Origin: an uncultured Clostridium sp.
Lineage (GTDB): Bacteria > Bacillota > Clostridia > TANB77 > CAG-508
DNA: 64,000 nucleotides
Direction of reading: 5' to 3'
Assembly: GCA_946495655.1 (NCBI GenBank)
Contig: CAMMDS010000002.1
Location: 28,984 to 92,983, forward strand
A model generated the notes under the pieces. That model was not told where the DNA came from, ran no database searches, and saw only the letters and a program-made list of their open reading frames with translations. How positions within the stretch are numbered: the first letter of the stretch is position 1; each line of letters starts with the position of its first letter. The position numbers and the translations under genes were made by a program. Shown in pieces: positions 23,522-44,368 of this stretch.

Positions 23522-23591
23522 CTACCATAGCTTAAGAATGCTTTACAAATATATATAATTTAAAAGAAAGGAGTTATTGTAGTTTTATTTT

Positions 23592-23775
23592 AAGCGCCTG
23601 GACGTATATATTCTAATACGTTGACGAGGAAGAAACCTATCGAAAGATTCGGCGGGTGGTTTCTTGGCAATGGTTACTGCCATAAATATTAGCAAAACCT
23701 GATAGTAATATCAGAATACAAATCTAATAGGGTAACCTTTATTTGTATTGCTTTCTTAAAATTCAGAACTAATTT
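23592..23775 (+). ncRNA. glmS ribozyme (GlcN6P-dependent self-cleaving riboswitch)
   Basis: AGCGCC cleavage-site start, conserved core GTTGACGAGG...TATCGAAAGATTCGGCGG matching the Bacillus glmS ribozyme. Located in the glmS 5' UTR. Confidence 0.85.
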
Positions 23776-23856: not shown

Positions 23857-25710
23857 ATGTGTGGTATTGTAGGATACATTGGTAGCAAAAAAGCTACACC
23901 TATTTTAATAGATGGACTTTTAAGTCTTGAATATAGAGGTTATGACTCAGCAGGAATTGCTACTATTGAAAAAGATGGTATTTCTGTTATGAAAGATAAA
24001 GGAAGAGTAAATAACTTAAATAATTTAGATGGTATAAATAATTTAGATGGTACAGTTGGTATAGCTCATACTAGATGGGCAACACATGGTAAGCCATCAA
24101 AAGAAAATTCTCATCCTCATAAAGATAATAGTGGAATGTTTGCAGTTGTTCATAATGGTATTATTGAGAATTATTCTGAACTTAGAGAATTTTTAACTTC
24201 AAAAGGTTATAGATTTTTATCTCAAACTGATACAGAAGTTATTCCAAATTTAATTCATTATTATTATACAAATGGACCAGTATCTATTTTAGAAAATGAA
24301 AGTGAAAAATTTTTAGGTGCTGTAAAATCAGCTATATATGATTTAAAAGGAAGTTATGCTATAGAAGCTATATCTCCAATATGTCCTGATAAAATTATTG
24401 TAGTAAGAAAAGATAGTCCATTAGTTATTGGAACAGGAAAAGAAGAAAATTACATTGCTTCTGATATTCCAGCTATATTAAAATATACAAAAGATTTCTA
24501 TTTATTAGATGATAATGAATTTGCAGTAGTAGAAAAAGATTGTGTTAGATTTTTTGATAATAGTTTAACAGAACATAATAAAGCTATAAAAAATATTGAA
24601 TGGGATGCAAATGCAGCAGGAAAAGACGGTTTTGAAGATTATATGCTTAAAGAAATCTTTGAGCAGCCAACAGCAATTAGAGAAACAATAGGTTCAAGAT
24701 TCCGTCTAGGCGAAAAATGTTCATTTGATGATATTGAATTATCTAAAGAATATTTAGAAAAAATCAACAAAATTTTTATCGTTGCCTGTGGAACAGCTAT
24801 GCATGCAGGTTTGGTTGGAAAAACAATTATAGAGAACTTATGTCAAATTCCTACAGAAGTAGATATAGCATCTGAATTTAGATATAGAAATCCAATAATA
24901 GATGAACATACTTTATGTATATATATAAGTCAATCTGGAGAAACAGCTGATACTATAGCTGCATTAAAACTTGCCAAATCAAAAGGAGCAAAAACACTTG
25001 CTATTTCAAATGTAATAGGAAGTTCAATAACAAGGGAAGCAGATTATTCTATATATACTCATGCAGGTCCAGAAATTGCAGTTGCATCAACTAAAGCTTA
25101 TACTTCTCAAGTAATGCTTATAGCAATTTTAGCAATGCATTTCGCAGAAATATTAGGAAGATCTTCTGAATCAGATATTGAATCATTAAAATCTGATATG
25201 ATTGATTTACCTTCTAAAATAGAAAAGATATTAGATGATAGTGAAATAATTAAAGAATTTGCAAAAAAAGTTTATACAGAAAAAGATATGTTTTTCTTAG
25301 GAAGAGGTACTGATTATAATGTTGCATTAGAAGGATCATTAAAATTGAAAGAAATTTCATATATTCATTCAGAAGCATATGCAGCTGGTGAATTAAAACA
25401 TGGTCCAATTGCACTTATAGAGAATGGTGTTACAGTTATAGGTATTATCACTAATCCAAATTTAGTTGAAAAATCTATTAGTAATATTCAAGAGGTAATA
25501 ACAAGAGGTGCTAAAACATTAATTATCACAAATCAAATACTTCCAAATAGTCATTTTGATTATGTAATTAATATTCCAGAAACAAATCCTCTTATCTCTC
25601 CTATTTTATCGGTAGTACCAATGCAACTCCTTGCATATTATATATCTAAATTCAAAGGTTTAGATGTTGACAAACCTAGAAACCTTGCAAAATCAGTAAC
25701 TGTTGAATAA
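23857..25710 (+). CDS. glmS: Glutamine--fructose-6-phosphate aminotransferase
   Basis: N-terminal MCGIVGY nucleophile, two SIS domains, C-terminal KSVTVE. Confidence 0.95.
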   Translation: MCGIVGYIGSKKATPILIDGLLSLEYRGYDSAGIATIEKDGISVMKDKGRVNNLNNLDGINNLDGTVGIAHTRWATHGKPSKENSHPHKDNSGMFAVVHNGIIENYSELREFLTSKGYRFLSQTDTEVIPNLIHYYYTNGPVSILENESEKFLGAVKSAIYDLKGSYAIEAISPICPDKIIVVRKDSPLVIGTGKEENYIASDIPAILKYTKDFYLLDDNEFAVVEKDCVRFFDNSLTEHNKAIKNIEWDANAAGKDGFEDYMLKEIFEQPTAIRETIGSRFRLGEKCSFDDIELSKEYLEKINKIFIVACGTAMHAGLVGKTIIENLCQIPTEVDIASEFRYRNPIIDEHTLCIYISQSGETADTIAALKLAKSKGAKTLAISNVIGSSITREADYSIYTHAGPEIAVASTKAYTSQVMLIAILAMHFAEILGRSSESDIESLKSDMIDLPSKIEKILDDSEIIKEFAKKVYTEKDMFFLGRGTDYNVALEGSLKLKEISYIHSEAYAAGELKHGPIALIENGVTVIGIITNPNLVEKSISNIQEVITRGAKTLIITNQILPNSHFDYVINIPETNPLISPILSVVPMQLLAYYISKFKGLDVDKPRNLAKSVTVE

Positions 25711-34263: not shown

Positions 34264-35154
34264 TCAATCTATTACTGCTCCTATTATTCCTGCATCATTT
34301 TTTAAATCTGCGAGTACTATATGAGGTAAATTTTCTTTATTGAAAACATATTTTCTTTTATTCATTTCATCAACAAGTTTTTTATAAAATATATCTTTAA
34401 AAAACACAAAACTTCCACCAATGGCTATAGCCTCTGGCTCGAATATATCTATAATATTAGATAATCCAATTATTAAATTATTTATATATTCATCTATTAA
34501 TTTTATTATATCGGAATTGTTAAGATTTTCTTTAACTTTTTCTAATAATTCTTTTGCTGAAATCTCATTGATATTTAATATTTTATTTACATTATCTTTA
34601 AATCTTTTCATTGAGCAATATGTTTCAAAGCATCCTTTTTTACCACAATTACATTCTAATCCATTTCTATCAATTATCATATGTCCAATCTCAAAACCAA
34701 TATGTCTATTTGATTGCATTAGTTTTTCATTTAAGAATACTGCAGATCCAATACCTGTTCCTAAACATAAAAACACAGCATCATTATATTGTTTTAGTGA
34801 ACCATATTTAAACTCTGCAAGGCCTGCAGCTTTTCCATCATTCCTTATTTGCATACGTATATTATATTTTTTTGAAATTTCTTTTAAATTTAATTTTTCT
34901 ATACCCAAATTAACCAAATTATATATTGTTAATTCTTCTTGATTTGGATTTCCAGGACTTGCTATTCCTATCAAATCAATATTATAGTTTTGTGTAAAAT
35001 GGTATATGTTTGAATTTATATATTCTAAAATATATGAATTCATATCTTTATTTGCTTGAATGTCTTGTTCTACCTTCTTTATTATTTTTCCATCACGCGG
35101 ATCTACTAATCCTATTCCAATATGACTCCCACCTAAATCTATACCTAATCTCAT
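34264..35154 (-). CDS. glk: ROK-family glucokinase
   Basis: MRLGIDLGGSH N-terminal ATPase motif, Cys-rich Zn motif C.C..GC.E. Start at 35154 with GGAGG RBS (longer ORF to 35271 unlikely). Confidence 0.85.
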   Translation of the reverse strand: MRLGIDLGGSHIGIGLVDPRDGKIIKKVEQDIQANKDMNSYILEYINSNIYHFTQNYNIDLIGIASPGNPNQEELTIYNLVNLGIEKLNLKEISKKYNIRMQIRNDGKAAGLAEFKYGSLKQYNDAVFLCLGTGIGSAVFLNEKLMQSNRHIGFEIGHMIIDRNGLECNCGKKGCFETYCSMKRFKDNVNKILNINEISAKELLEKVKENLNNSDIIKLIDEYINNLIIGLSNIIDIFEPEAIAIGGSFVFFKDIFYKKLVDEMNKRKYVFNKENLPHIVLADLKNDAGIIGAVID

Positions 35155-35185
35155 TTTTCTTATTCCTCCATATATAATAGAAAAA

Positions 35186-35227
35186 CTATTCAAACAGATT
35201 ATATCACAATATATTCTGTTTGAATAG
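35186..35227 (-). terminator. Terminator at the end of the pilus operon (CTATTCAAACAG...CTGTTTGAATAG)
   Basis: 12-bp stem, T-run on the minus strand after pilC. Confidence 0.5.
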
Positions 35228-35245
35228 TTAAAGTATTTTCTTTCT

Positions 35246-36604
35246 TTAGAAATTTGGTAAATCCACTGCATCGAATAACCAAGTACCCATATAAAGTTGT
35301 ATACATGGTACTATAATTACAATTACTAAGAATATTAAGAACACTCCAACAATTGAATATATAACTTGTGGTAAAACGCTCATTATTCTTTGCATTTCAT
35401 TATTTATATCCATATCCATGTATTCAACAAGTTTACTTATCATTTCAGATAAATCAGTTTGCATACCGATTTTTAACATTTCTGTTTCCATTGATGATGA
35501 TAAACCTGAATTTTCAAATGGCTCTATCCACGATGCACCTATTAATATATTATTAATAGCTGTTTCTATTATAGATAATAGTACATAATTTTTAACTACT
35601 GATTTACTTACTTCTAGCGAATCTTGAATTCTCATTCCATTTTCAAGGTTTAATAACATGGCTCTCATAAATCTTGAAAAATCCATCGCATATATTAATC
35701 TTCCAAAAATAGGCATTTTATATTTAAAATAATGGAAGTTATATTTTCCTTTTGGTGTATTTACATATGCAAAAATTATTCCAACAATTGCAGCAATCAT
35801 TCCAACTGGTATATACCAAACACTCATCAGATTATTACAGAAATTTACAAACCATACTGTAATTTCAGGAAGTTGCTGAGTTGTTCCTGAAGCCTCGAAA
35901 GCTTCTTCTATTAATGGAATAATGTATGCAACACCAAAAATCAATATTCCTAAAATAGCTACTAATTGTAAAACGTTTGGTATTATGATTTTTCTTAGTC
36001 TTGATCCTGTAGTGTCCACATCTTCAAGATATTTTACCGCTTGTTCTAGTGATTTTGTAAGTGATCCAGACATTTCTCCTACTCTTATCATGTTGATATA
36101 TATATATGGGAAAATGTTAGAATAATATTCCATTGTAGTATACATATATTCTCCAGATTCAACACCTGCTAATATATCTTGAAGTATTCCTCTTAGTGAT
36201 AAATTATCTGTACTATCTATTATAGTACTTAAAGCATGTATATTATTAAAGTTTGCTTTTTTCAACAAGTAAAAATTCTGTGTAAAAATTATAATGTCTC
36301 TCGTAGTTATTTTTTCTTCTCTTGCTAATGCTATATTTACTCTTTCCTTTAATGAAGGTTTTGCAGAAATCCTTCCTCGCATAATATTAGCAGAATCAGC
36401 TTGTTTCATTATGTCGTCTATATCCATCATATTTCTTCTATTAACTTTAGTTTTCTTGCTTCTGTATCCAACTTGTACAATACTTATTGGTACTAAGCCA
36501 CTACTCTTCAATTTTTTTATGAGAGTATGTTTATTGGAATCTTCAACTCTATTTCTTACAATTTGTCCCTTTGAAGTAACCGCTCTATAAATATATTCTG
36601 GCAT
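35246..36604 (-). CDS. pilC: Type IV pilus inner-membrane platform protein PilC (GspF family)
   Basis: Two T2SS-F domains and three TM segments. Confidence 0.85.
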   Translation of the reverse strand: MPEYIYRAVTSKGQIVRNRVEDSNKHTLIKKLKSSGLVPISIVQVGYRSKKTKVNRRNMMDIDDIMKQADSANIMRGRISAKPSLKERVNIALAREEKITTRDIIIFTQNFYLLKKANFNNIHALSTIIDSTDNLSLRGILQDILAGVESGEYMYTTMEYYSNIFPYIYINMIRVGEMSGSLTKSLEQAVKYLEDVDTTGSRLRKIIIPNVLQLVAILGILIFGVAYIIPLIEEAFEASGTTQQLPEITVWFVNFCNNLMSVWYIPVGMIAAIVGIIFAYVNTPKGKYNFHYFKYKMPIFGRLIYAMDFSRFMRAMLLNLENGMRIQDSLEVSKSVVKNYVLLSIIETAINNILIGASWIEPFENSGLSSSMETEMLKIGMQTDLSEMISKLVEYMDMDINNEMQRIMSVLPQVIYSIVGVFLIFLVIVIIVPCIQLYMGTWLFDAVDLPNF

Positions 36605-36630
36605 TTTTTCTCCTTTCTAATAAATATACT

Positions 36631-37749
36631 TTATTGATTTATTCTATTGTCCTTTTCTTTTTTTATTTTTAATTGCATTATAGTTCTATTTAAAGTCTCA
36701 ATATTCTTTTCCTCTATTTGTGCTTTTGCTTGTTCTAATGTGATTACATCATTTACAAATAATTCTGCTATAGAATTTATTAATCCTATACTTCCCTTTT
36801 CTAAGTTACTTTGTATTGCATCTTCTATTTCAGATACACTTATTTTTTCTTTTCTAATTATACCAGATACAATATTGTCTACTACCATTACCTCAGGTAC
36901 TAATACTAATTCTCCTGTTTTAGATGGTAATAATCTTTGAGATATAACTAATTTCAATAATGATGAAATTAAGTACTTAACTGTTTGTTGATCTCTTATT
37001 TCATAAAAGTTTACCATTCTATCTATTGTTTCTGCACATGACTTTGTATGAAGAGTTCCTATAACTAAATGTCCTGACTCTGCTGTCTCTATTGCTGCTT
37101 CCATAGTTTCTCTGTCTCTAATCTCTCCTATTACTAATATATCACAGTCTTCTCTTAATGAGTTTTTAACACCATCACTAAAGCTTAAACAATCTCTTCC
37201 AGCCCCAACTTCTTTCTGAATTATAACAGATTTTTTACTTGTATGCTTATATTCAACTGGATTTTCTAGTGTAAGTATTTTTTTGTTTTGATTTTCATTT
37301 ATTTCATTAATTAATGCATTTAATGTTGTTGTTTTTCCAGAATTAGTTTTACCAGTAACAAGCATTAATCCTTGTGGCTGATATGTCATTCTTCTTACTA
37401 TATCAGGAACACCTAAATCTTCATATTTTGGTAATTCATTTTTTATAAGTCTCATTGTAAATACTGGTATTTCATTAGCCAAAGAGATATTAACCCTTAA
37501 ACGTATGTCTTCAAATTCAAACGAAGTATCTAGTTTCTTTGTTTCTTTAAAAACTCTATCTTTATCTACATTTCCACGTACAAAATAATCATATACTTCA
37601 TACATATCATCTTCTACTAGAGGTGAAGGACATTCATATTCTATTAATTCTCTTCTAATTCTTAACATTGGCTTTAATCCGCAGATTAAATGTACATCAG
37701 AAGCATCCTTTTTACGTGCAGTATCCAAAATTTTATCAATATCTATCAT
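36631..37749 (-). CDS. pilT: Type IV pilus retraction ATPase PilT
   Basis: Walker A GKTNSGKTTT, Asp box, His box. 372 aa and no N-terminal GSPII-N domain. Confidence 0.85.
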   Translation of the reverse strand: MIDIDKILDTARKKDASDVHLICGLKPMLRIRRELIEYECPSPLVEDDMYEVYDYFVRGNVDKDRVFKETKKLDTSFEFEDIRLRVNISLANEIPVFTMRLIKNELPKYEDLGVPDIVRRMTYQPQGLMLVTGKTNSGKTTTLNALINEINENQNKKILTLENPVEYKHTSKKSVIIQKEVGAGRDCLSFSDGVKNSLREDCDILVIGEIRDRETMEAAIETAESGHLVIGTLHTKSCAETIDRMVNFYEIRDQQTVKYLISSLLKLVISQRLLPSKTGELVLVPEVMVVDNIVSGIIRKEKISVSEIEDAIQSNLEKGSIGLINSIAELFVNDVITLEQAKAQIEEKNIETLNRTIMQLKIKKEKDNRINQ

Positions 37750-37766
37750 TTGTTACCTCCATATTT

Positions 37767-39392
37767 TTAATATAATGCTAATTTATTATTTAGCTCATCC
37801 AAATTTGTAATACCATCTATTATCTTGTTTATACCATCTACAATTAATGGTACATATCCGTTTTGCAATGCTACATCCCTAATTTCCATCGCTGGCTTAT
37901 TTTCTACAATTAAAGATCTTATTGTATCATTTAACATTAATACTTCAAATATTCCAATTCTTCCAAGATATCCTGTATTATGACATTTTTTACATCCTAC
38001 TGCATCAAATGTTTTCTTTCCTTCTATATCGAATTTGATATTATATTTTTCTCCTATTTTTCCTATTATTTCTTTCTCTTTTTCTGTATAATCTCTTTCT
38101 CTAGCACAATGAGGACACAATCTTCTTACCAATCTCTCTGAAACTGATGTAGCCAAAGTACTTGATATATCATAGTTCGATATTCCCATTTTTCTCAATC
38201 TTGTTATAACTTCCACAGCATCAATTGTATGAATTGTTGATAATACGTAATGACCAGTTTGTCCAGCTTGCATTGCTATTTCTGCAGTTTCTGTATCTCT
38301 TATTTCTCCAACTAGTATAATATCTGGATCTTGTCTCAATACTGTTCTTAATGAATCTACAAAAGTTATTTTTTGATCAACTTCTATTTGATTTAATCCG
38401 TTTATTCTAATTTCTACTGGATCTTCAATAGTAGTAATATTTATTTGCGGTTTATTTAAATAATCTATAATACTGTATAATGTAGTAGTTTTACCCTCTC
38501 CTGTTGGAGCCGCTATAACAGTGATACTATTCTTTTTGTTAAATGCATTTTTTACTAGATTTTGGTCATTTGGGAATCCTAAATCAAATAATGATCTTAC
38601 ATCTTCGTTTTTCTTTAATAATCTTAGAACGAATTTTTCTCCATATATATTCTTTTGTGAAGAAACACGAATATTATATTCTGGATACATTATAATTCTA
38701 CCATCTTGTGATTCTTGTTTTTCTTGATGCATATTAGATATTGCTTTTAATCTTCCTACAATTTGTGATTGTTTTTCTTTTCCTATATCTGCTGCATTAA
38801 CTAATACACCATCAATTCTATATCTAATTCTCATTCCCTCTTGCATCGGTTCTATATGGATATCACTCGCCCTTTTATCCATTGCTGTTTTTATTACACT
38901 ATCTATAAATCCAGAAACATCTGCATTTACATCTATAGTCTCCGAACTACCGCCAAAAGAATTCAAAATCAAATCAATATTTGTTTCAAATGTTATATAT
39001 TTTTCCATTATAAGGCCTTTATTTAAAAGTAAAAGCCTTACAGTTTCAACAGCTCTTTTATTTGAAGTATCTGCAAAGCATACTTTTATTCTTCCACTTA
39101 CTTCTTCAAATGGTATAGCTTTATATTGTTTTGCAGTATCAATTGAAATATAATCAAGAATATTAAGTTTAATATCTGCTTCTCTTAAATATATTGCTTT
39201 TTCTTCTAGAATCTCTCCCATTGCATTTATTAATACATATGGATCACATACTCTTAAAATATTTAATATATCTCCGATTTTCTTTTTGGGTTCAGCTTTT
39301 TGATAATCTAATGCTCTTTCAATATCTTCTTCAGTAACAATTCCTCTTTTTACTAATTCTATTCCTAAAGGTTGTCTTTTTTTTGACTCCAT
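37767..39392 (-). CDS. pilB: Type IV pilus assembly ATPase PilB (GspE family)
   Basis: N-terminal GSPII_E_N domain, Walker A APTGEGKTTT, tetracysteine CPHC...CKKC zinc motif. Confidence 0.9.
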   Translation of the reverse strand: MESKKRQPLGIELVKRGIVTEEDIERALDYQKAEPKKKIGDILNILRVCDPYVLINAMGEILEEKAIYLREADIKLNILDYISIDTAKQYKAIPFEEVSGRIKVCFADTSNKRAVETVRLLLLNKGLIMEKYITFETNIDLILNSFGGSSETIDVNADVSGFIDSVIKTAMDKRASDIHIEPMQEGMRIRYRIDGVLVNAADIGKEKQSQIVGRLKAISNMHQEKQESQDGRIIMYPEYNIRVSSQKNIYGEKFVLRLLKKNEDVRSLFDLGFPNDQNLVKNAFNKKNSITVIAAPTGEGKTTTLYSIIDYLNKPQINITTIEDPVEIRINGLNQIEVDQKITFVDSLRTVLRQDPDIILVGEIRDTETAEIAMQAGQTGHYVLSTIHTIDAVEVITRLRKMGISNYDISSTLATSVSERLVRRLCPHCARERDYTEKEKEIIGKIGEKYNIKFDIEGKKTFDAVGCKKCHNTGYLGRIGIFEVLMLNDTIRSLIVENKPAMEIRDVALQNGYVPLIVDGINKIIDGITNLDELNNKLALY

Positions 39393-39459
39393 AGAATTTC
39401 TCCTTTCATTAGTTATATATTATATATTATTAACTTTTTTTATAATAATATTATTAATT

Positions 39460-39912
39460 TCACCAATATCTCAAAGTAAAACTAATATTTTGAGTTATTG
39501 AATCTTCGGCATTTCTTCCAATTTGTAAATCTACATTAATAATATTTTTACTAACTGTATTTACAGTATAAGGTGATAATGTAAAATTACATCCTAATAT
39601 ATTTTGTGCTATACGTACATCATTCCTATAGATAAAATTGTTTTGATACGTATATACTGGCCCATCTTCGAATTCTATAGTGTTATTTGTTACTGTAGCA
39701 TTATCATAGTTTTTTACATCAGTAGCAAAAAACATGGCAAATTTATTGAATTCATTAATGTATTTGGGTGAATTAACTGCTTCCCCAATGTTAGCATAAA
39801 AAAATGTACTTATTGTAGTTAAAACACCTATAACCAAAGTTAGTATGAACATATATGCAACTAAAGCCGCTAACGTAATACCTTTTTCACTTTTAACTTT
39901 ATTTTTCCACAT
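39460..39912 (-). CDS. Minor pilin-like protein (prepilin-type N-terminus KG|ITLAALV, no Glu5)
   Basis: Class III signal-like N-terminus followed by a hydrophobic helix. Confidence 0.6.
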   Translation of the reverse strand: MWKNKVKSEKGITLAALVAYMFILTLVIGVLTTISTFFYANIGEAVNSPKYINEFNKFAMFFATDVKNYDNATVTNNTIEFEDGPVYTYQNNFIYRNDVRIAQNILGCNFTLSPYTVNTVSKNIINVDLQIGRNAEDSITQNISFTLRYW

Positions 39913-39942
39913 TTGTTACACGAAAAGCCCCTTTCACAATAG

Positions 39943-40368
39943 TTATATTTCCTTAATTTTTAATCTTTTGACTGTAAATTCTTCTGTTTCTCCTGCTACT
40001 GTATATGAGATTTTTAAATTTACAATTTTTATTACATCTTTTATATAAGGTTTTCCTTCTCCATAGTCTGTTAATTGTAAATCCACATTAAATCCATTTG
40101 GTATAGAAAATTGTTCTTTATATTCAGCCCCCGTCATATTTTGAGCATCTTCATACGATAATTTATCAATATCTTCTAATATTTGTACTGCATAGAATGT
40201 CATTTGCGATGTTAAATTTGCTCTAATGTTAATATGATAAACCGAATACATTAATGTTCCAATAATTCCTACAAATGCAACAAATATAAAGCATGCAATA
40301 AGTAAATCTTGCATTGTAAATCCATTTTCTGATTTTAAATTAATTTTTAATTTACTTTTATTGTTCAT
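39943..40368 (-). CDS. Minor pilin-like protein (NG|FTMQDLL, Asp at +5)
   Basis: Prepilin cleavage motif G-F-T-M and hydrophobic helix. Confidence 0.65.
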   Translation of the reverse strand: MNNKSKLKINLKSENGFTMQDLLIACFIFVAFVGIIGTLMYSVYHINIRANLTSQMTFYAVQILEDIDKLSYEDAQNMTGAEYKEQFSIPNGFNVDLQLTDYGEGKPYIKDVIKIVNLKISYTVAGETEEFTVKRLKIKEI

Positions 40369-40372
40369 TTAA

Positions 40373-41188
40373 TCACCTATAAAAAATCACATAATTAGTT
40401 ATTAGTAACATTATTATATTTGAAACACACATGTAAAATCCTATTGGAATTTTAGTATTTTCAATTTTAACTCTTTTTACAATCTTACTCTTTTTTTCAC
40501 TTAGTTTTTGAATCAATAATTGAATTGAAATAGCAAGTAATGTAATAATTACTGTATATATATATACAGTTTCATATGTAAATAAAATCATTAACATTGA
40601 TAATAATAAAACATCAATAGTATAACTGTCTTGACCTTTTTTTCTTAAATACACAATGCTAAATAGCAATAATATGCATGATAACATTAAATAAATAACA
40701 TATCTATAGATACTAGCATCATTTTCTACTATATATAGATATATCATATATAATGTAACACAAATAAAGCCAAATAATAATACTGGCTTTTCTATTCTAA
40801 TTCTTTCTTTATCGATTCCAGCAATAATAAACAGTGTTGCTAAATATAACAATCCCACAACAAAATATACTAATATTTGATTGTTTAAATTAAAAATACT
40901 AATTTTAATTGAAGCTGCAAATAATACAAATACAACACCTGATAATATTTCAAGTAAAATATATCTAACTCTAATTTTTTCTTTGCAATATCTACATCTT
41001 CCACCTAAAAAGGTATAACTTAATATTGGTATCATGTCTAAAAAAGTTAATTTATGATTGCAATTAGGGCAATATGAACGTGTATGAGTTATATCTTGTC
41101 CTAATGGAATCCTATATACTGCTAAAGTAAAAAAGCTACCAAATAAAGTGCCTATGCAAAATATTAAAATATATAATATATAGTCCAT
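40373..41188 (-). CDS. pilD: Prepilin peptidase (A24 family)
   Basis: N-terminal CxxC...CxxC zinc motif, polytopic membrane protein. Confidence 0.85.
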   Translation of the reverse strand: MDYILYILIFCIGTLFGSFFTLAVYRIPLGQDITHTRSYCPNCNHKLTFLDMIPILSYTFLGGRCRYCKEKIRVRYILLEILSGVVFVLFAASIKISIFNLNNQILVYFVVGLLYLATLFIIAGIDKERIRIEKPVLLFGFICVTLYMIYLYIVENDASIYRYVIYLMLSCILLLFSIVYLRKKGQDSYTIDVLLLSMLMILFTYETVYIYTVIITLLAISIQLLIQKLSEKKSKIVKRVKIENTKIPIGFYMCVSNIIMLLITNYVIFYR

Positions 41189-41317
41189 ATGTTCTCCTTA
41201 TTTTGAAATAGAGGTTATACTTAAAATATAATTACATATTTTAAATTATATTTGAATAGTATAACCTCTTCTATTTTAGTTTAAAGAAATCTTAAACCGT
41301 TTAAAACTTTTTTACTA

Positions 41318-41554
41318 CTAATTTGTAGCTATGCCTTTTTCTGTTAGTATTCCATCAATGTAATGCTCTACGTTTGTAATAGACTGTTCTGTGTACTTTG
41401 TATCATTTGCATAGAACTCTTCAGCTTGCTCAGCACGTCCTATAAGTCCATCACTTCCAAAAGCAAATGTAATTGCTACTGTTGCTAAAATTATTAATAT
41501 AATTATTGTTATAACTAAAGCAACTAATGTGATACCCCTTTGATTCTTTAACAT
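41318..41554 (-). CDS. Short type IV pilin-like protein (78 aa), candidate major pilin. N-terminus QRG|ITLVALVITIIILIILATV lacks Glu5.
   Basis: Prepilin-like N-terminus. Followed by a long imperfect hairpin (41205-41285) before pilD. N-terminal 50 aa are homologous to the RCC1-fusion protein at 57845-59131. Confidence 0.65.
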   Translation of the reverse strand: MLKNQRGITLVALVITIIILIILATVAITFAFGSDGLIGRAEQAEEFYANDTKYTEQSITNVEHYIDGILTEKGIATN

Positions 41555-41630
41555 AAAAAATTCCTCCTTATAAAAATTTTTTTGTATATATTTAATTTAA
41601 TAAATATAACCTAGTTCATTAAGAATTAAA

Positions 41631-42059
41631 TTACTTAATTCCTTCTTCATTAAAAAATGTTCCTGTTGAATTTTCATCTATATTGCTTGGTTCATTGTTT
41701 TCATTTGTATCTTGATTATTACTGCCATTACCCTCTCCAGATGTTCCTGTATTTGTTGTTTCACTTTCTAGTGAAAATGGGTTAGCTTTTCCTTCTGTAT
41801 AACTTCCACTTTGTTTATAAATATTTAAATCTGAATCTGTAACTTCATAAGTTACTTCAATTTTTTCAGTTTCTGATATTGTTTCATCAATTTCATTTCT
41901 TACATTTTCTGGTGTTACATATGCTTCTTTCTCTGGCACAACTTTATTTATAGGAATATAATCATAAAATAGTATTCCTAAAATTAATAATATAGCTATA
42001 CTCAAGAGTAATATTATAAAAATTTCTTTAATTACCGATTTTAGCATACTTGCCTCCAT
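41631..42059 (-). CDS. Membrane-anchored hypothetical protein with acidic Thr/Asn-rich tail (pilus operon)
   Basis: N-terminal TM helix. Position inside the pilus operon. Confidence 0.5.
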   Translation of the reverse strand: MEASMLKSVIKEIFIILLLSIAILLILGILFYDYIPINKVVPEKEAYVTPENVRNEIDETISETEKIEVTYEVTDSDLNIYKQSGSYTEGKANPFSLESETTNTGTSGEGNGSNNQDTNENNEPSNIDENSTGTFFNEEGIK

Positions 42060-42068
42060 TTATCATCA

Positions 42069-42752
42069 TTATTGTGTAATTTCATTTGATGTATCTGTAT
42101 TAGTTGTATCTGTTTCTGTATTAGTTGTTGTAGTACCATCTGATGTAGTAGACTCTACTGTAGTTGTTGTATTTTCTAAATCTATTCTAATACCAGTTAC
42201 ATTAAATGTTGCTTGTAGATTTTCTCCATCTGGAAGTAGATGAAAATTCTCTATTCTAAATTCTAGCTCGCTATCATTTTCAAGTGCTGATATAAATTCT
42301 ATTATTCCTGCATATTGTCCTGTTACTGTAAAATTTATATTCTTAACAGTAGAATCACCTGCGTCTCCAGATAACACATCCATTCTAAAATTTACACCCT
42401 CTGTTCTTGCATGTCTTCCTATTCTTAGCCATAGGTATTCAATTTTATAAACTTCTTGTGTATTAGCTTCATTTATTTCGCTTTCTGTACTAACATTAGC
42501 CAAATTATAATAGCTTTCTTTGTTTTCTAATAATACACTAACATTATCAGATAATTCTGTTTTTTTGTTTTGTAAATCGCTTTTTATTTTTATATTAGCT
42601 TCATTTATTTCTGTTGTTAAATTGTCATTAAGTTCTATTATACCTTGTGTACTCAAAATTTGAAATGAGCCTATAGAAATTCCTTGAAATATAGTGAAAT
42701 ATGCCAGAACAATTAATAATACGAGTAATACTGCTATTAAAATTTTTCTCAT
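42069..42752 (-). CDS. pilO: PilO-like pilus assembly protein
   Basis: Single N-terminal TM, coiled coil, periplasmic-type domain. Overlaps the pilMN stop by 4 nt. Confidence 0.55.
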   Translation of the reverse strand: MRKILIAVLLVLLIVLAYFTIFQGISIGSFQILSTQGIIELNDNLTTEINEANIKIKSDLQNKKTELSDNVSVLLENKESYYNLANVSTESEINEANTQEVYKIEYLWLRIGRHARTEGVNFRMDVLSGDAGDSTVKNINFTVTGQYAGIIEFISALENDSELEFRIENFHLLPDGENLQATFNVTGIRIDLENTTTTVESTTSDGTTTTNTETDTTNTDTSNEITQ

Positions 42753-44368
42753 GGCAAATCCCCCTCTATAACAATCTTGACAAAATCGCCTTGTTTTTCT
42801 CCTTGTGTAGAAACTACATTTGTTAATATTCTATCTTCTTTAAGTTTTGCTTTAAAATATCCTAATTCATCGTAATATCTAGATTGTGCATTAATTACTA
42901 TATGTCTTCCTTCTGAACCTGCAGTATTTTCAATTTCAGTTATTTGTACTTGTCTAGGTATAGCAGACATTATTTCTACTAATAGATTTGGAATTGAGTT
43001 TTTTAAGCTCAAATCATTTTCTATTTTGTCATTTATATTTCTAAGGTTGTCTTCCATTTCTTTATATCTATTAGCTTTTTGTTTTACTTCATTTATATCA
43101 CTATCTGCTAAAGCTATCTGAGCATCTGTATAATCGCTTACTTCTTGTGCTTCAACTATTTTATCATTTATTCTATTATTTAAATAAATAGAAAAACCTG
43201 AAAATAATATTGTAAGCATTAATACTCCAGCAGCACTTCTTAATAACCACTTTTCTGTAAGATCAAATTTTCCTTTCAAGCTAAAGTTAAGTTTTTTTCC
43301 ACTTTTCTTTTCTTTTTTTCCTAAACTTACATCTATCTTTAGCCAATCTGGTAATTGGTCTATAAGGCTTGGTTTTTTGAAATTCATGTTCTTGATACCA
43401 TAGCCTAATCCTTGCATTGCTATAGCAATTGCTGAATTCACTTCTATATAGTCTTTTATGTTTATTTTTACGCTTTCTGTGATGAAATAAGGTTTTAGTA
43501 CTTCGCATTTTTCTGTTTGGAAAAACTCTTGAAAATATAAATCTATATTATTTACAACTGACATTGTACCAGTCAAATAAATCTTTTCAAACTTCACAGT
43601 TGTACTAGCTACATATTCTTGTACTTTTGTTACTATTTTGTATAATGTAGGCATTATATAATCTAGATATTCATTTTCTTCGTCCTGTAATTCTTTTCCT
43701 TCCATTGTGTATATTGTAGAATTTTTACAAATCTCATACGCTTTAGAATATGAATTTTCTTTACTAGCAATTTTTCCTAATATATCTCCAGAACCTTCTT
43801 CTAGTTTTTCTACATTATATATTTTTTGATTTATTATACTAGTTATACTAGTATTTTCTTCTATATTTACAATTATTATGTTTTCCTTAGGTTTAATAGA
43901 TGCAATATTGGCAATACTAGTTCCTATTGGAGTTATTGTAGATACCTTGTAATCATTGAATGTTTGTAAAGTTTTTGAAATTGACGATTTGTTTGAAGAA
44001 ACATGTATTACTTTTACTTTATCTTTATCATCAATTTCATTCGATAACGCATATCTTGCTTCAAATGCATTTTTATTTAACTTTTTGTCATAACAATATG
44101 AATCAAATTCAGTATCTATAGCTTGTTTTAGATCATTCTTGTTAAGAAGGCTAAACATATAGAAATAGTTGTATATTTCTTCAGATAGATTTATACTTAT
44201 TGGTATATTATAGCTATAAGTTTCTGAAACAATTTGTTCTATTGCTTCACCAATTTTTTCATAAAACTTTACTCCAAAAGATTCTATCTTTAAAAGTTCA
44301 CGATCTTTGGTTACTTTTGCATATTTAATTACATTGTTTTCTATATATAATCCTAAACAGCTAGACAT
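42749..44368 (-). CDS. pilMN: PilM-PilN fusion protein
   Basis: Actin-like PilM domain of about 330 aa, TM segment LLRSAAGVLMLTILFSGFSIYL, then PilN-like coiled-coil domain. Confidence 0.8.
   Translation of the reverse strand: MSSCLGLYIENNVIKYAKVTKDRELLKIESFGVKFYEKIGEAIEQIVSETYSYNIPISINLSEEIYNYFYMFSLLNKNDLKQAIDTEFDSYCYDKKLNKNAFEARYALSNEIDDKDKVKVIHVSSNKSSISKTLQTFNDYKVSTITPIGTSIANIASIKPKENIIIVNIEENTSITSIINQKIYNVEKLEEGSGDILGKIASKENSYSKAYEICKNSTIYTMEGKELQDEENEYLDYIMPTLYKIVTKVQEYVASTTVKFEKIYLTGTMSVVNNIDLYFQEFFQTEKCEVLKPYFITESVKINIKDYIEVNSAIAIAMQGLGYGIKNMNFKKPSLIDQLPDWLKIDVSLGKKEKKSGKKLNFSLKGKFDLTEKWLLRSAAGVLMLTILFSGFSIYLNNRINDKIVEAQEVSDYTDAQIALADSDINEVKQKANRYKEMEDNLRNINDKIENDLSLKNSIPNLLVEIMSAIPRQVQITEIENTAGSEGRHIVINAQSRYYDELGYFKAKLKEDRILTNVVSTQGEKQGDFVKIVIEGDLP

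Follow-up and report, generated by a model that had tools for sequence, protein, structure and literature searches.

The stretch of DNA considered here, hereafter the window, comprises 64,000 nucleotides from an uncultured Clostridium sp. (contig CAMMDS010000002.1 of assembly GCA_946495655.1, positions 28,984 to 92,983) and carries on its minus strand ten closely spaced genes that resemble a type IVa pilus operon, whose pilin-like products lack the glutamate typical of mature position 5 (Glu5). Direct reading of the open reading frames (ORFs) from 44368 down to 35246 gives a PilMN-like protein of 539 amino acids (aa), a PilO-like protein (227 aa), orf142, a 78-aa pilin, PilD (271 aa), a 141-aa pilin, a 150-aa pilin, PilB (541 aa), PilT (372 aa) and PilC (452 aa), in the order and on the strand described in a first-pass annotation of the same DNA (Table 1).

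That annotation had recognized a complete cluster of the PilB/PilT/PilC/PilD and PilM-N-O type with Glu5-less pilin-like proteins, which is supported here, and had counted four pilin N-termini, three of them with alanine at position 5 (Ala5). Two of these Ala5 N-termini do belong to the operon, but it holds only three pilin ORFs, and the third Ala5 N-terminus is that of a 428-aa protein encoded elsewhere in the window.

Table 1. Position of the pilus genes, associated RNA structures and the related gene outside the operon, in window coordinates
Feature	Coordinates	Strand	Basis or remark
PilM-PilN-like fusion, 539 aa	42749..44368	-	Position and topology
PilO-like protein, 227 aa	42069..42752	-	Inferred from position and topology
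orf142, membrane-anchored, conserved	41631..42059	-	Present in 51 syntenic operons
78-aa prepilin, candidate major subunit	41318..41554	-	PF07963 near cut-off, homologues, model, ribosome-binding site
Two stable RNA hairpins	41195..41320	-	Between the 78-aa pilin gene and pilD
PilD-like prepilin peptidase / N-methylase, 271 aa	40373..41188	-	A24_N_bact, 1.5e-29
141-aa minor pilin-like protein	39943..40368	-	Leader ends ...SENG, then FTMQDL (Asp5)
150-aa minor pilin-like protein	39460..39912	-	...SEKG, then ITLAALV (Ala5)
PilB extension ATPase, 541 aa	37767..39392	-	T2SSE, 4.9e-101
PilT retraction ATPase, 372 aa	36631..37749	-	TIGR01420 full-length, 2.1e-94
PilC platform protein, 452 aa	35246..36604	-	Two T2SSF stretches; GspF/PilC NCBIfam models to 2e-54
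Intrinsic-terminator-like hairpin with U5	35181..35227	-	Downstream of pilC, upstream of the ROK kinase gene
Modular Ala5 pilin-like protein, 428 aa	57845..59131	-	Outside the operon, between ldh and clpC

Pilin-like proteins of the operon

No residue of bacterial type IV pilins is more strongly conserved than Glu5, and every model of their assembly uses its salt bridge with the N-terminus of the neighbouring subunit. It is described as interrupting the hydrophobic tract of bacterial pilins "almost invariably", its frequent absence being confined to archaea, which agrees with the earlier remark that a bacterial family devoid of it is atypical (PMC4471445), and in filaments it pairs with the N-terminal amine of a neighbouring subunit (PMC4471445; PMC10191384). 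The need for Glu5 in N-methylation, which had been presented as the norm, stands in part, as the residue is required for methylation in some systems only and is dispensable for cleavage (PMC4471445); what precisely Glu5 and N-methylation contribute is still treated in reviews as an unsettled question (PMC4471445; PMC10191384).

A hydrophilic leader that ends in Gly and is followed by about 21 hydrophobic residues is seen in the 78-, 141-, 150- and 428-aa proteins, and none of them has Glu at mature position 5, where the 141-aa protein carries Asp and the other three carry Ala. The 78-aa prepilin reads MLKNQRG↓ITLVALVITIIILIILATV (over a longer stretch, MLKNQRG↓ITLVALVITIIILIILATVAITFAFG; the arrow marks the predicted cleavage site), that is, a leader of 7 aa (MLKNQRG) and a mature part of 71 aa that begins ITLVALV, with Ile1 and Ala5. 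The 150-aa protein begins MWKNKVKSEKG↓ITLAALVAYMFIL (longer stretch, MWKNKVKSEKG↓ITLAALVAYMFILTLVIG) and the 141-aa protein begins MNNKSKLKINLKSENG↓FTMQDLLIACF (longer stretch, MNNKSKLKINLKSENG↓FTMQDLLIACFIFVAFVG), which identifies the latter as the bearer of the Asp5 N-terminus G↓FTMQD reported at first. It is the only operon subunit with an acidic residue at +5, and none of the other ORFs of the window has one in a class-III-like signal.

The 78-aa protein had been put forward as the major pilin, which is plausible on sequence grounds, given its slot upstream of pilD, its extreme conservation and the two stable hairpins that follow its gene, none of these being decisive. A strong ribosome-binding site (AAGGAGG) lies upstream of the gene, and the hairpins that separate it from pilD (dG -28.5 kcal/mol, z -4.49, with 0 of 200 shuffles folding as well) may work as a partial terminator or attenuator. 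In the AlphaFold2 model (pLDDT 81.5) the protein forms three helices (residues 2-32, 37-51 and 56-72), which are broken at FG-x-x-G. The segment Y-A-N-D-T-x-Y-T (residues 48-55), which includes an N-x-T sequon, is near-invariant in the family and may serve in glycosylation or in packing. For detection at the protein level, the tryptic peptides AEQAEEFYANDTK and YTEQSITNVEHYIDGILTEK would be markers, beside the mature N-terminus.

For the 150-aa protein, AlphaFold2 (pLDDT 81) predicts an N-terminal helix of residues 14-68, kinked at 45-47, and after it a beta region with eight strands. This helix-plus-sheet architecture is suggestive of the pilin "lollipop", in which a helix of about 50 residues is packed on an antiparallel beta sheet; the protein's profile had no relevant match among PDB sequences. 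The 141-aa profile gave weak matches to Geobacter PilA-N over the N-terminus in the same collection (7tgg and 9egp; E 0.02-0.05, best E 0.023), and the protein weakly matches the ComGF and GspJ models of NCBIfam. Neither minor protein is matched by PF07963, and the operon pilins as a set have only weak equivalog matches in NCBIfam (E 0.018-0.066).

The product of orf142 has a membrane helix at its N-terminus, an invariant Y..T.SDL..Y....Y..GK.NPF segment, an Asn-rich low-complexity linker and a C-terminal NSTGTFF..G.K. It was ruled out as a pilin, as the N-terminal helix is not accompanied by a G↓xT motif, and its NPF motif is one that we take to be reminiscent of the RDPF motif of PilP.

The Ala5 module in relatives and outside the operon

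The 78-aa protein is identical on 7 contigs from NCBI and ENA. Its 307 homologues measure 73-81 aa and are all unnamed; among the best 120 of these, all 118 in which the motif is present read G↓ITLVALV with Ala5. A phage origin of the protein is unsupported, with zero matches in phage records.

A scan that took one genome per species gave 79 loci, all from metagenome-assembled genomes (MAGs) of uncultured gut Clostridia (human, mouse, chicken, rabbit and deer), and in 60 of the 79 the same operon is found in the same order, usually with the ROK gene after it and with PilB 57-89% identical, which points to long-term purifying selection on the whole gene set. Across these 60 syntenic operons, the residue at +5 of the class-III-like N-termini is Ala in 78 cases, Asp in 24, Ser in 17, Thr in 2 and Glu in 1. 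Each slot has its own motif, namely G↓ITLVAL upstream of pilD, G↓(I/V)TL(T/S/A)(S/A)L in the 150-aa slot, whose orthologues carry Ser or Ala at +5, and G↓FTMQD in the 141-aa slot, where Asp5 occurs in 19 of the 19 aligned orthologues and, across 25, in 24, the other being Glu.

The canonical G↓FTLIE was looked for in close relatives, which keep Ala5 instead. The notion that Glu5 is missing through a local sequencing, assembly or frame artefact is refuted by the recurrence of the identical protein on separate contigs, by the 118 homologues and by the 60 syntenic operons, which come from independent assemblies, and it can be given practically no credence.

In distant operons, the slot upstream of pilD is filled by Ala5 pilins with 130-195 mature residues, often in two tandem copies, which begin KNQKG↓ITLVALVITIIVLLILAGV (loci L026, L030, L046, L048, L054, L056, L059, L071, L072, L074, L075 and others). 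Given this, the 71-residue form is a truncated one, particular to the clade of the window, and Ala5 is the general rule.

The same kind of N-terminus is found outside the operon. In a six-frame scan of the window, MRKTIKREKG↓ITLVALVITIIIIIILATV heads the 428-aa protein, which begins MRKTIKREKG↓ITLVALV...FAFGDNGLIKRAEDARDYY, a module of about 70 aa as in the 78-aa protein, and whose remainder is a seven-blade RCC1 propeller (RCC1/WD40_RLD at 4e-146); against the profile of the 78-aa family it scores 2.2e-28. When a profile of the 78-aa alignment was searched against 1.84 billion cluster representatives (clusters at 50% identity), the threshold E<=1e-3 gave 25,776 matches, of which 2,744 also passed E<=1e-10. 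The 150 best of these matches range from 72 to 706 aa, with the module N-terminal in nearly all of them; the motif could be placed in 142, and 140 of these have Ala5.

The shared unit has about 75 residues and consists of a Lys/Arg-rich leader followed by G↓ITL(V/I)ALVITI..LIILA.V.I.F.FG.NGL..RAE.A..Y.NDT.YT..S..NV..Y. In a count of 100 module-bearing ORFs that was made without forcing Gly in the search, Gly-1, Ile+1 and Ala+5 are present in 99, 97 and 95, respectively. Among 66 longer members, the C-terminal domains include BspA-type leucine-rich repeats (LRR), RCC1, DUF285, fn3, PKD, beta-propellers and enzymes, the last represented by GDSL lipase, choloylglycine hydrolase (the bile-salt-hydrolase family) and FGE-sulfatase domains. 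Pfam N_methyl (PF07963) reaches E<=0.001 in 1 of these 66, so that the Ala5 family has probably remained uncounted in the census of modular pilins based on IPR012902. No name or annotation for family members was found in any source looked up; the collections searched hold the module only in metagenomic proteins without a name, and the genomic loci retrieved all belong to MAGs of uncultured Clostridia from the gut of animals or humans.

Assembly genes, peptidase and the proposed filament

The family assignments of PilB, PilT, PilC and PilD are solid at the level of sequence comparison. PilB has its best NCBIfam match in TIGR02538 (409.7 bits, for an equivalog cut-off of 675), ahead of GspE, TfpB and ComGA, and PilT, which is 63-94% identical in relatives, reaches 316.5 bits on TIGR01420 (pilT_fam), 2.6 bits short of the curated cut-off of 319.1. 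On the archaeal FlaI model the two operon ATPases score 71.5 and 59.9 bits, far below the bacterial PilB and PilT models, and on the TadA-family model 41-48 bits. The N-terminal residues of PilB, about 60 in number, hold two tandem MshEN-type motifs, PLGIELVKRGIVTEEDIERALDYQ and KIGDILNILRV..., with scores below the cut-offs of Pfam MshEN (22.9 bits versus 23.1) and of the motif for binding of cyclic di-GMP (c-di-GMP), NF053729 (31.4 versus 38), and a control of pilus extension by c-di-GMP is possible on this evidence; the window holds no c-di-GMP riboswitch.

The 539-aa protein, whose gene opens 57 syntenic operons (36-84% identity), combines an actin-like N-terminal half, a membrane helix at about residues 375-397, a coiled coil and a C-terminal alpha/beta domain. 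It matches weakly the pilM model TIGR01175 (E 0.0021, residues 36-296) and EutJ, both actin-fold families, with no match in Pfam and none for its profile among PDB sequences. The fused PilMN of the first description may be retained, as a weak label, from this match, the topology and the position; a PilMN fusion is already known in C. difficile (PMC6916266). The 227-aa protein keeps the same slot in 57 operons and shows an N-terminal membrane helix, a coiled coil, a C-terminal domain of the form F..TG.Y..I..F...E.D..L.F.I.NF and a Thr-rich tail, and it has no match in Pfam, NCBIfam or PDB sequences.

Downstream of pilC, the terminator announced before glk is real as a structure, consisting of a hairpin at 35186-35227 and U5 (dG -22.3 kcal/mol, z -5.82 on folding), which was missed by a consensus terminator scan because its loop is long. 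The gene that follows encodes a ROK kinase, and since the start chosen by the ORF caller overlaps pilC, the true start is more probably the ATG at 35154. The neighbours in the window (BacA/UppP, DpaA, RNase J, ldh and clpC) and a GC content of about 27% indicate the chromosome of a low-GC, spore-forming member of the Clostridia. An ENA contig of 529 kb (locus L084) is syntenic with the window, with a TPR protein, DpaA, BacA, the pil operon, the ROK kinase, RNase J and Gln-tRNA synthetase, and a contig of 1.9 Mb that bears one PilD homologue may indicate that genomes in this lineage are small, at about 2 Mb. The window also holds a glmS ribozyme-riboswitch on the plus strand (23582-23739, Rfam RF00234, 89.2 bits), upstream of a 617-aa ORF (23857-25710).

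We consider it reasonably probable, judging from sequence, that the operon encodes a type IVa-like pilus of a single-membrane lineage of gut Clostridia, represented by MAGs only, which would assemble lineage-specific pilins without the salt bridge between Glu5 and the N-terminal amine. The prepilins would enter the membrane by means of a class III signal (a Lys/Arg-rich leader, Gly-1, Ile+1 and an uncharged helix of about 25 residues), and the operon PilD would cut after Gly-1 and may N-methylate Ile1. PilB, PilC and PilMN-O would then polymerise the 71-residue mini-pilin as the main subunit, with a purely hydrophobic packing of the helices, as in archaeal type IV filaments. The two minor pilins may start or finish the filament, which PilT, as its gene suggests, would retract; among the subunits, the classical acid-to-amine contact would be open to the 141-aa protein alone, through its Asp5. 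By analogy with S. sanguinis, the module paralogues (RCC1, LRR, DUF285 and enzymes) may be processed by the same machinery and act as adhesins or enzymes displayed either on the filament or by it.

Several observations weigh against such a pilus. Wherever tested in bacteria, major pilins with a mutated Glu5 form no homopolymers, yet they are co-assembled with wild-type subunits (PMC4471445), and the E5V variant of ComGC likewise forms no homopolymers (cited in PMC8727766). Pfam N_methyl scores the 78-aa protein at 20.7 bits, below its threshold of 21.2, and no NCBIfam pilin-signal model matches the operon pilins at E<=0.1; the 78-aa model is all-helical, with no beta-sheet head, and neither this model nor that of the 150-aa protein has a significant Foldseek match in PDB, which leaves the predicted folds no more than suggestive. 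PilMN and PilO are weak labels, drawn from topology and conserved position. The relatives are all uncultured, and the cleavage, methylation, polymerisation and expression of the Ala5 pilins are inferred throughout.

The same weight attaches to PilD, which lacks any match to Peptidase_A24 (PF01478) at E<=0.1 and has lost the glycines of the GxGD motif, which reads SYTID; PF01478 is also missing from the precomputed domains of its 120 best homologues. The N-terminal methylase / zinc-finger domain (PF06750) is intact, with four invariant cysteines (Cys40, 43, 65 and 68), and a profile built from four aligned canonical peptidases (from Acetoanaerobium, an E. coli plasmid protein, the E. coli PppA protein and Pseudomonas) covers the window PilD end to end at E 4e-28. 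In this alignment Asp126 falls on the first catalytic Asp, Asp192 (in SYTID) on the second and IPIGFY on the PFGP motif, and with both catalytic Asp aligned, the catalysis of the window PilD is probably retained. Its profile has no relevant match among PDB sequences.

Among 58 operon PilDs, the first catalytic Asp is present in 56, and the second position, as aligned by MAFFT, is occupied by Asp in 29, Glu in 13, Gln in 8, Gly in 5 and Asn, Leu and Ser in 1 each (Asp in 27 when aligned to the canonical profile). The second position is therefore non-acidic in 16 of the 58, about a quarter (loci L020, L028, L029, L033, L036, L043, L046, L048, L051, L055, L057, L059, L071, L072, L074 and L075), with the first Asp also replaced by Ser in L020 and L028, and cleavage by PilD is not assured across the lineage. 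The pilins of these 16 operons keep Gly-1 and ITLVALV (KNQKG↓ITLVALV), and such lineages may have another peptidase, a catalytic site arranged differently or a PilD whose role is not proteolytic; the 64-kb window holds no second A24-like ORF.

Much of this could be read in another manner, with G↓ITLVALV as an uncleaved signal-anchor, the Asp5 protein (or none) as the only true pilin, and the operon as a degenerating or repurposed remnant with a weakened PilD. The missing Glu5, the pilin-signal models below threshold, the loss of GxGD, the second Asp that is not conserved in distant relatives, the lack of a pilin among the Foldseek results and the behaviour of the tested Glu5 mutants (PMC4471445) would all suit a remnant, but the near-universal Gly-1 (99 of 100) and the invariant Ile-Thr-Leu after it would be left without an explanation. 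In 60 species the 78-aa gene is found in the one place, with the assembly genes on one side and pilD on the other, and distant relatives have full-size Ala5 pilin-like proteins there. None of the ten genes is broken or poorly conserved (the occasional split ORF in a MAG has the look of an assembly error), and the 150-aa Ala5 protein has a predicted helix-plus-sheet architecture, all of which makes this reading quite improbable.

A filament of another kind may also be considered, that is, a short pseudopilus for display or secretion, like that of the type II secretion system or the Sulfolobus bindosome, which would push fusions with the class III signal through the wall or release them, the 71-aa protein acting as piston or scaffold. 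The module heads very varied C-terminal domains, enzymes included, several paralogues occur in each MAG (at least 5 loci each from CAMOBD and CAMMVE), the mini-pilin has no surface-exposed head domain, and archaea have a dedicated type IV-like system that assembles sugar-binding proteins bearing class III signals. A second set of type IV pilus genes in C. perfringens has, moreover, been linked to the secretion of a matrix protein in a preprint (bioRxiv 10.1101/2024.11.04.621531). A pseudopilus is nevertheless unlikely, given that PilT is kept at 63-94% identity and that type II secretion and Com systems have no PilT (PMC10191384), and that the gene set is the minimal type IVa set of single-membrane bacteria (PMC6916266); the present data would suit a short filament as well as a long one.

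Returning to the type IVa-like pilus, a broader reading may be advanced more tentatively, as a possibility that falls somewhat short of probable, in which the G↓ITL(V/I)ALV module would be a large and unrecognised class of bacterial pilins that works on ordinary PilB/PilT/PilC without the Glu5 salt bridge and, in part, perhaps without a canonical two-Asp peptidase. The module would then serve as a universal carrier of dozens of adhesin and enzyme domains (RCC1, BspA-LRR, DUF285, lipase and the bile-salt-hydrolase family) on retractile filaments, and would amount to a natural experiment in which Glu5 is not required for type IVa assembly. The modular family, the full-size Ala5 pilins of the distant slot and the atypical PilD go beyond the first-pass annotation. 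In the literature full text searched, outside which most subscription journals lie, no paper contains the strings ITLVALV, ITLIALV, GITLVAL or GITLIAL and no report of a Glu5-less major pilin in bacteria was found, with the same limit leaving an earlier description possible.

A system that lacks Glu5, keeps the standard PilB/PilT/PilC and is conserved in many species offers a comparative handle on the role of this residue. Given that pilin finders and the IPR012902 census depend on the canonical motif, they probably miss this family of at least 2,744 clusters, and given that the family is unannotated, comes in its retrieved genomic loci from widespread uncultured gut bacteria and is in many cases fused to adhesin-like or enzyme domains, the surface biology of these bacteria and their interactions with host and diet may be under-annotated. 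The results are of interest to the field of type IV pili and to the annotation of gut Clostridia.

Comparison with known systems

Class III signals of archaea are cut by FlaK, PibD or EppA and are also found on surface proteins that are not pilins, such as the sugar-binding proteins of the Sulfolobus bindosome. As in the present operon, archaeal pilins and archaellins often lack Glu5 and have an uncharged hydrophobic N-terminal helix, and they still assemble into filaments (PMC4471445), which makes the archaeal half of the earlier comparison with archaeal or Tad-like subunits a fair one. The likeness is limited to the absence of Glu5, and it is because Glu5 and the curated signatures fail that the Ala5 pilins are not filed among the canonical pilins of IPR012902. 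Gly-1 is strict here and variable in archaea, and the operon has a bacterial PilT, PilM/N/O-like proteins and a PilB nearest to TIGR02538; its peptidase carries the bacterial A24_N domain, which archaeal-type peptidases lack. A transfer of the whole system from archaea was rejected because the machinery is of the bacterial type IVa.

Tad/Flp systems (type IVc) share with the operon short pilins, of about 50-80 aa and mostly helical, and Flp pilins carry a conserved Glu5-Tyr6. Their TadV has no methylase domain, and the TadA/B/C machinery includes neither PilT nor PilMNO (PMC10191384). A Tad-like system was therefore rejected, in view of the missing Glu5-Tyr6, the methylase domain of PilD and the low scores on the TadA-family model, and the Tad half of the earlier comparison falls with it.

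The nearest precedent for a helix-only mini-pilin is Geobacter PilA-N (61 aa, "Geopilin domain 1"), which is likewise very short and essentially all helix, with no beta-sheet head, yet has the canonical residues Phe1 and Glu5 and is partnered by a head, PilA-C, that has its own gene. No equivalent of PilA-C was identified in the operon, where orf142 is a candidate by adjacency only.

Modular pilins, on the other hand, are an established design (PMC8179133), exemplified by S. sanguinis PilB (vWA) and PilC (lectin) among more than 1,200 proteins of IPR012902, and the RCC1, LRR, DUF285, fn3 and lipase fusions fit it, with the difference that their cargo is carried by about 75 aa of helix only and not by a small pilin fold. 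In known bacterial systems only the tip subunit is devoid of Glu5 (GspK, PilK or PilX, ComGG), and it is naturally so, being still processed and incorporated (PMC10191384; PMC8727766). The pattern of the operon is the reverse, as one minor pilin is acidic at this position (Asp5) and the rest, including the pilin of the major slot, have Ala or Ser.

Finally, the type IVa pili of Firmicutes (the primary cluster of C. difficile, C. perfringens and S. sanguinis) have, as here, a single cluster with PilB/PilT/PilC, PilD with its methylase and PilM/N/O (putative in the operon), as well as one major and few minor pilins and no secretin or outer-membrane parts (PMC6916266), and the MshEN-like N-terminus of PilB is a further likeness. 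Their pilins have the canonical G↓FTL(I/V)E and a first helix close to that of two-membrane bacteria, whereas the operon has no Glu5, an Ile at +1 in its helix-only major-slot pilin of 71 aa, a PilD without GxGD and PilM/N/O proteins too diverged for Pfam or NCBIfam. With these differences noted, the machinery of the operon, its putative PilMN fusion included, comes nearest to that of the type IVa pili found in Clostridia and in S. sanguinis.

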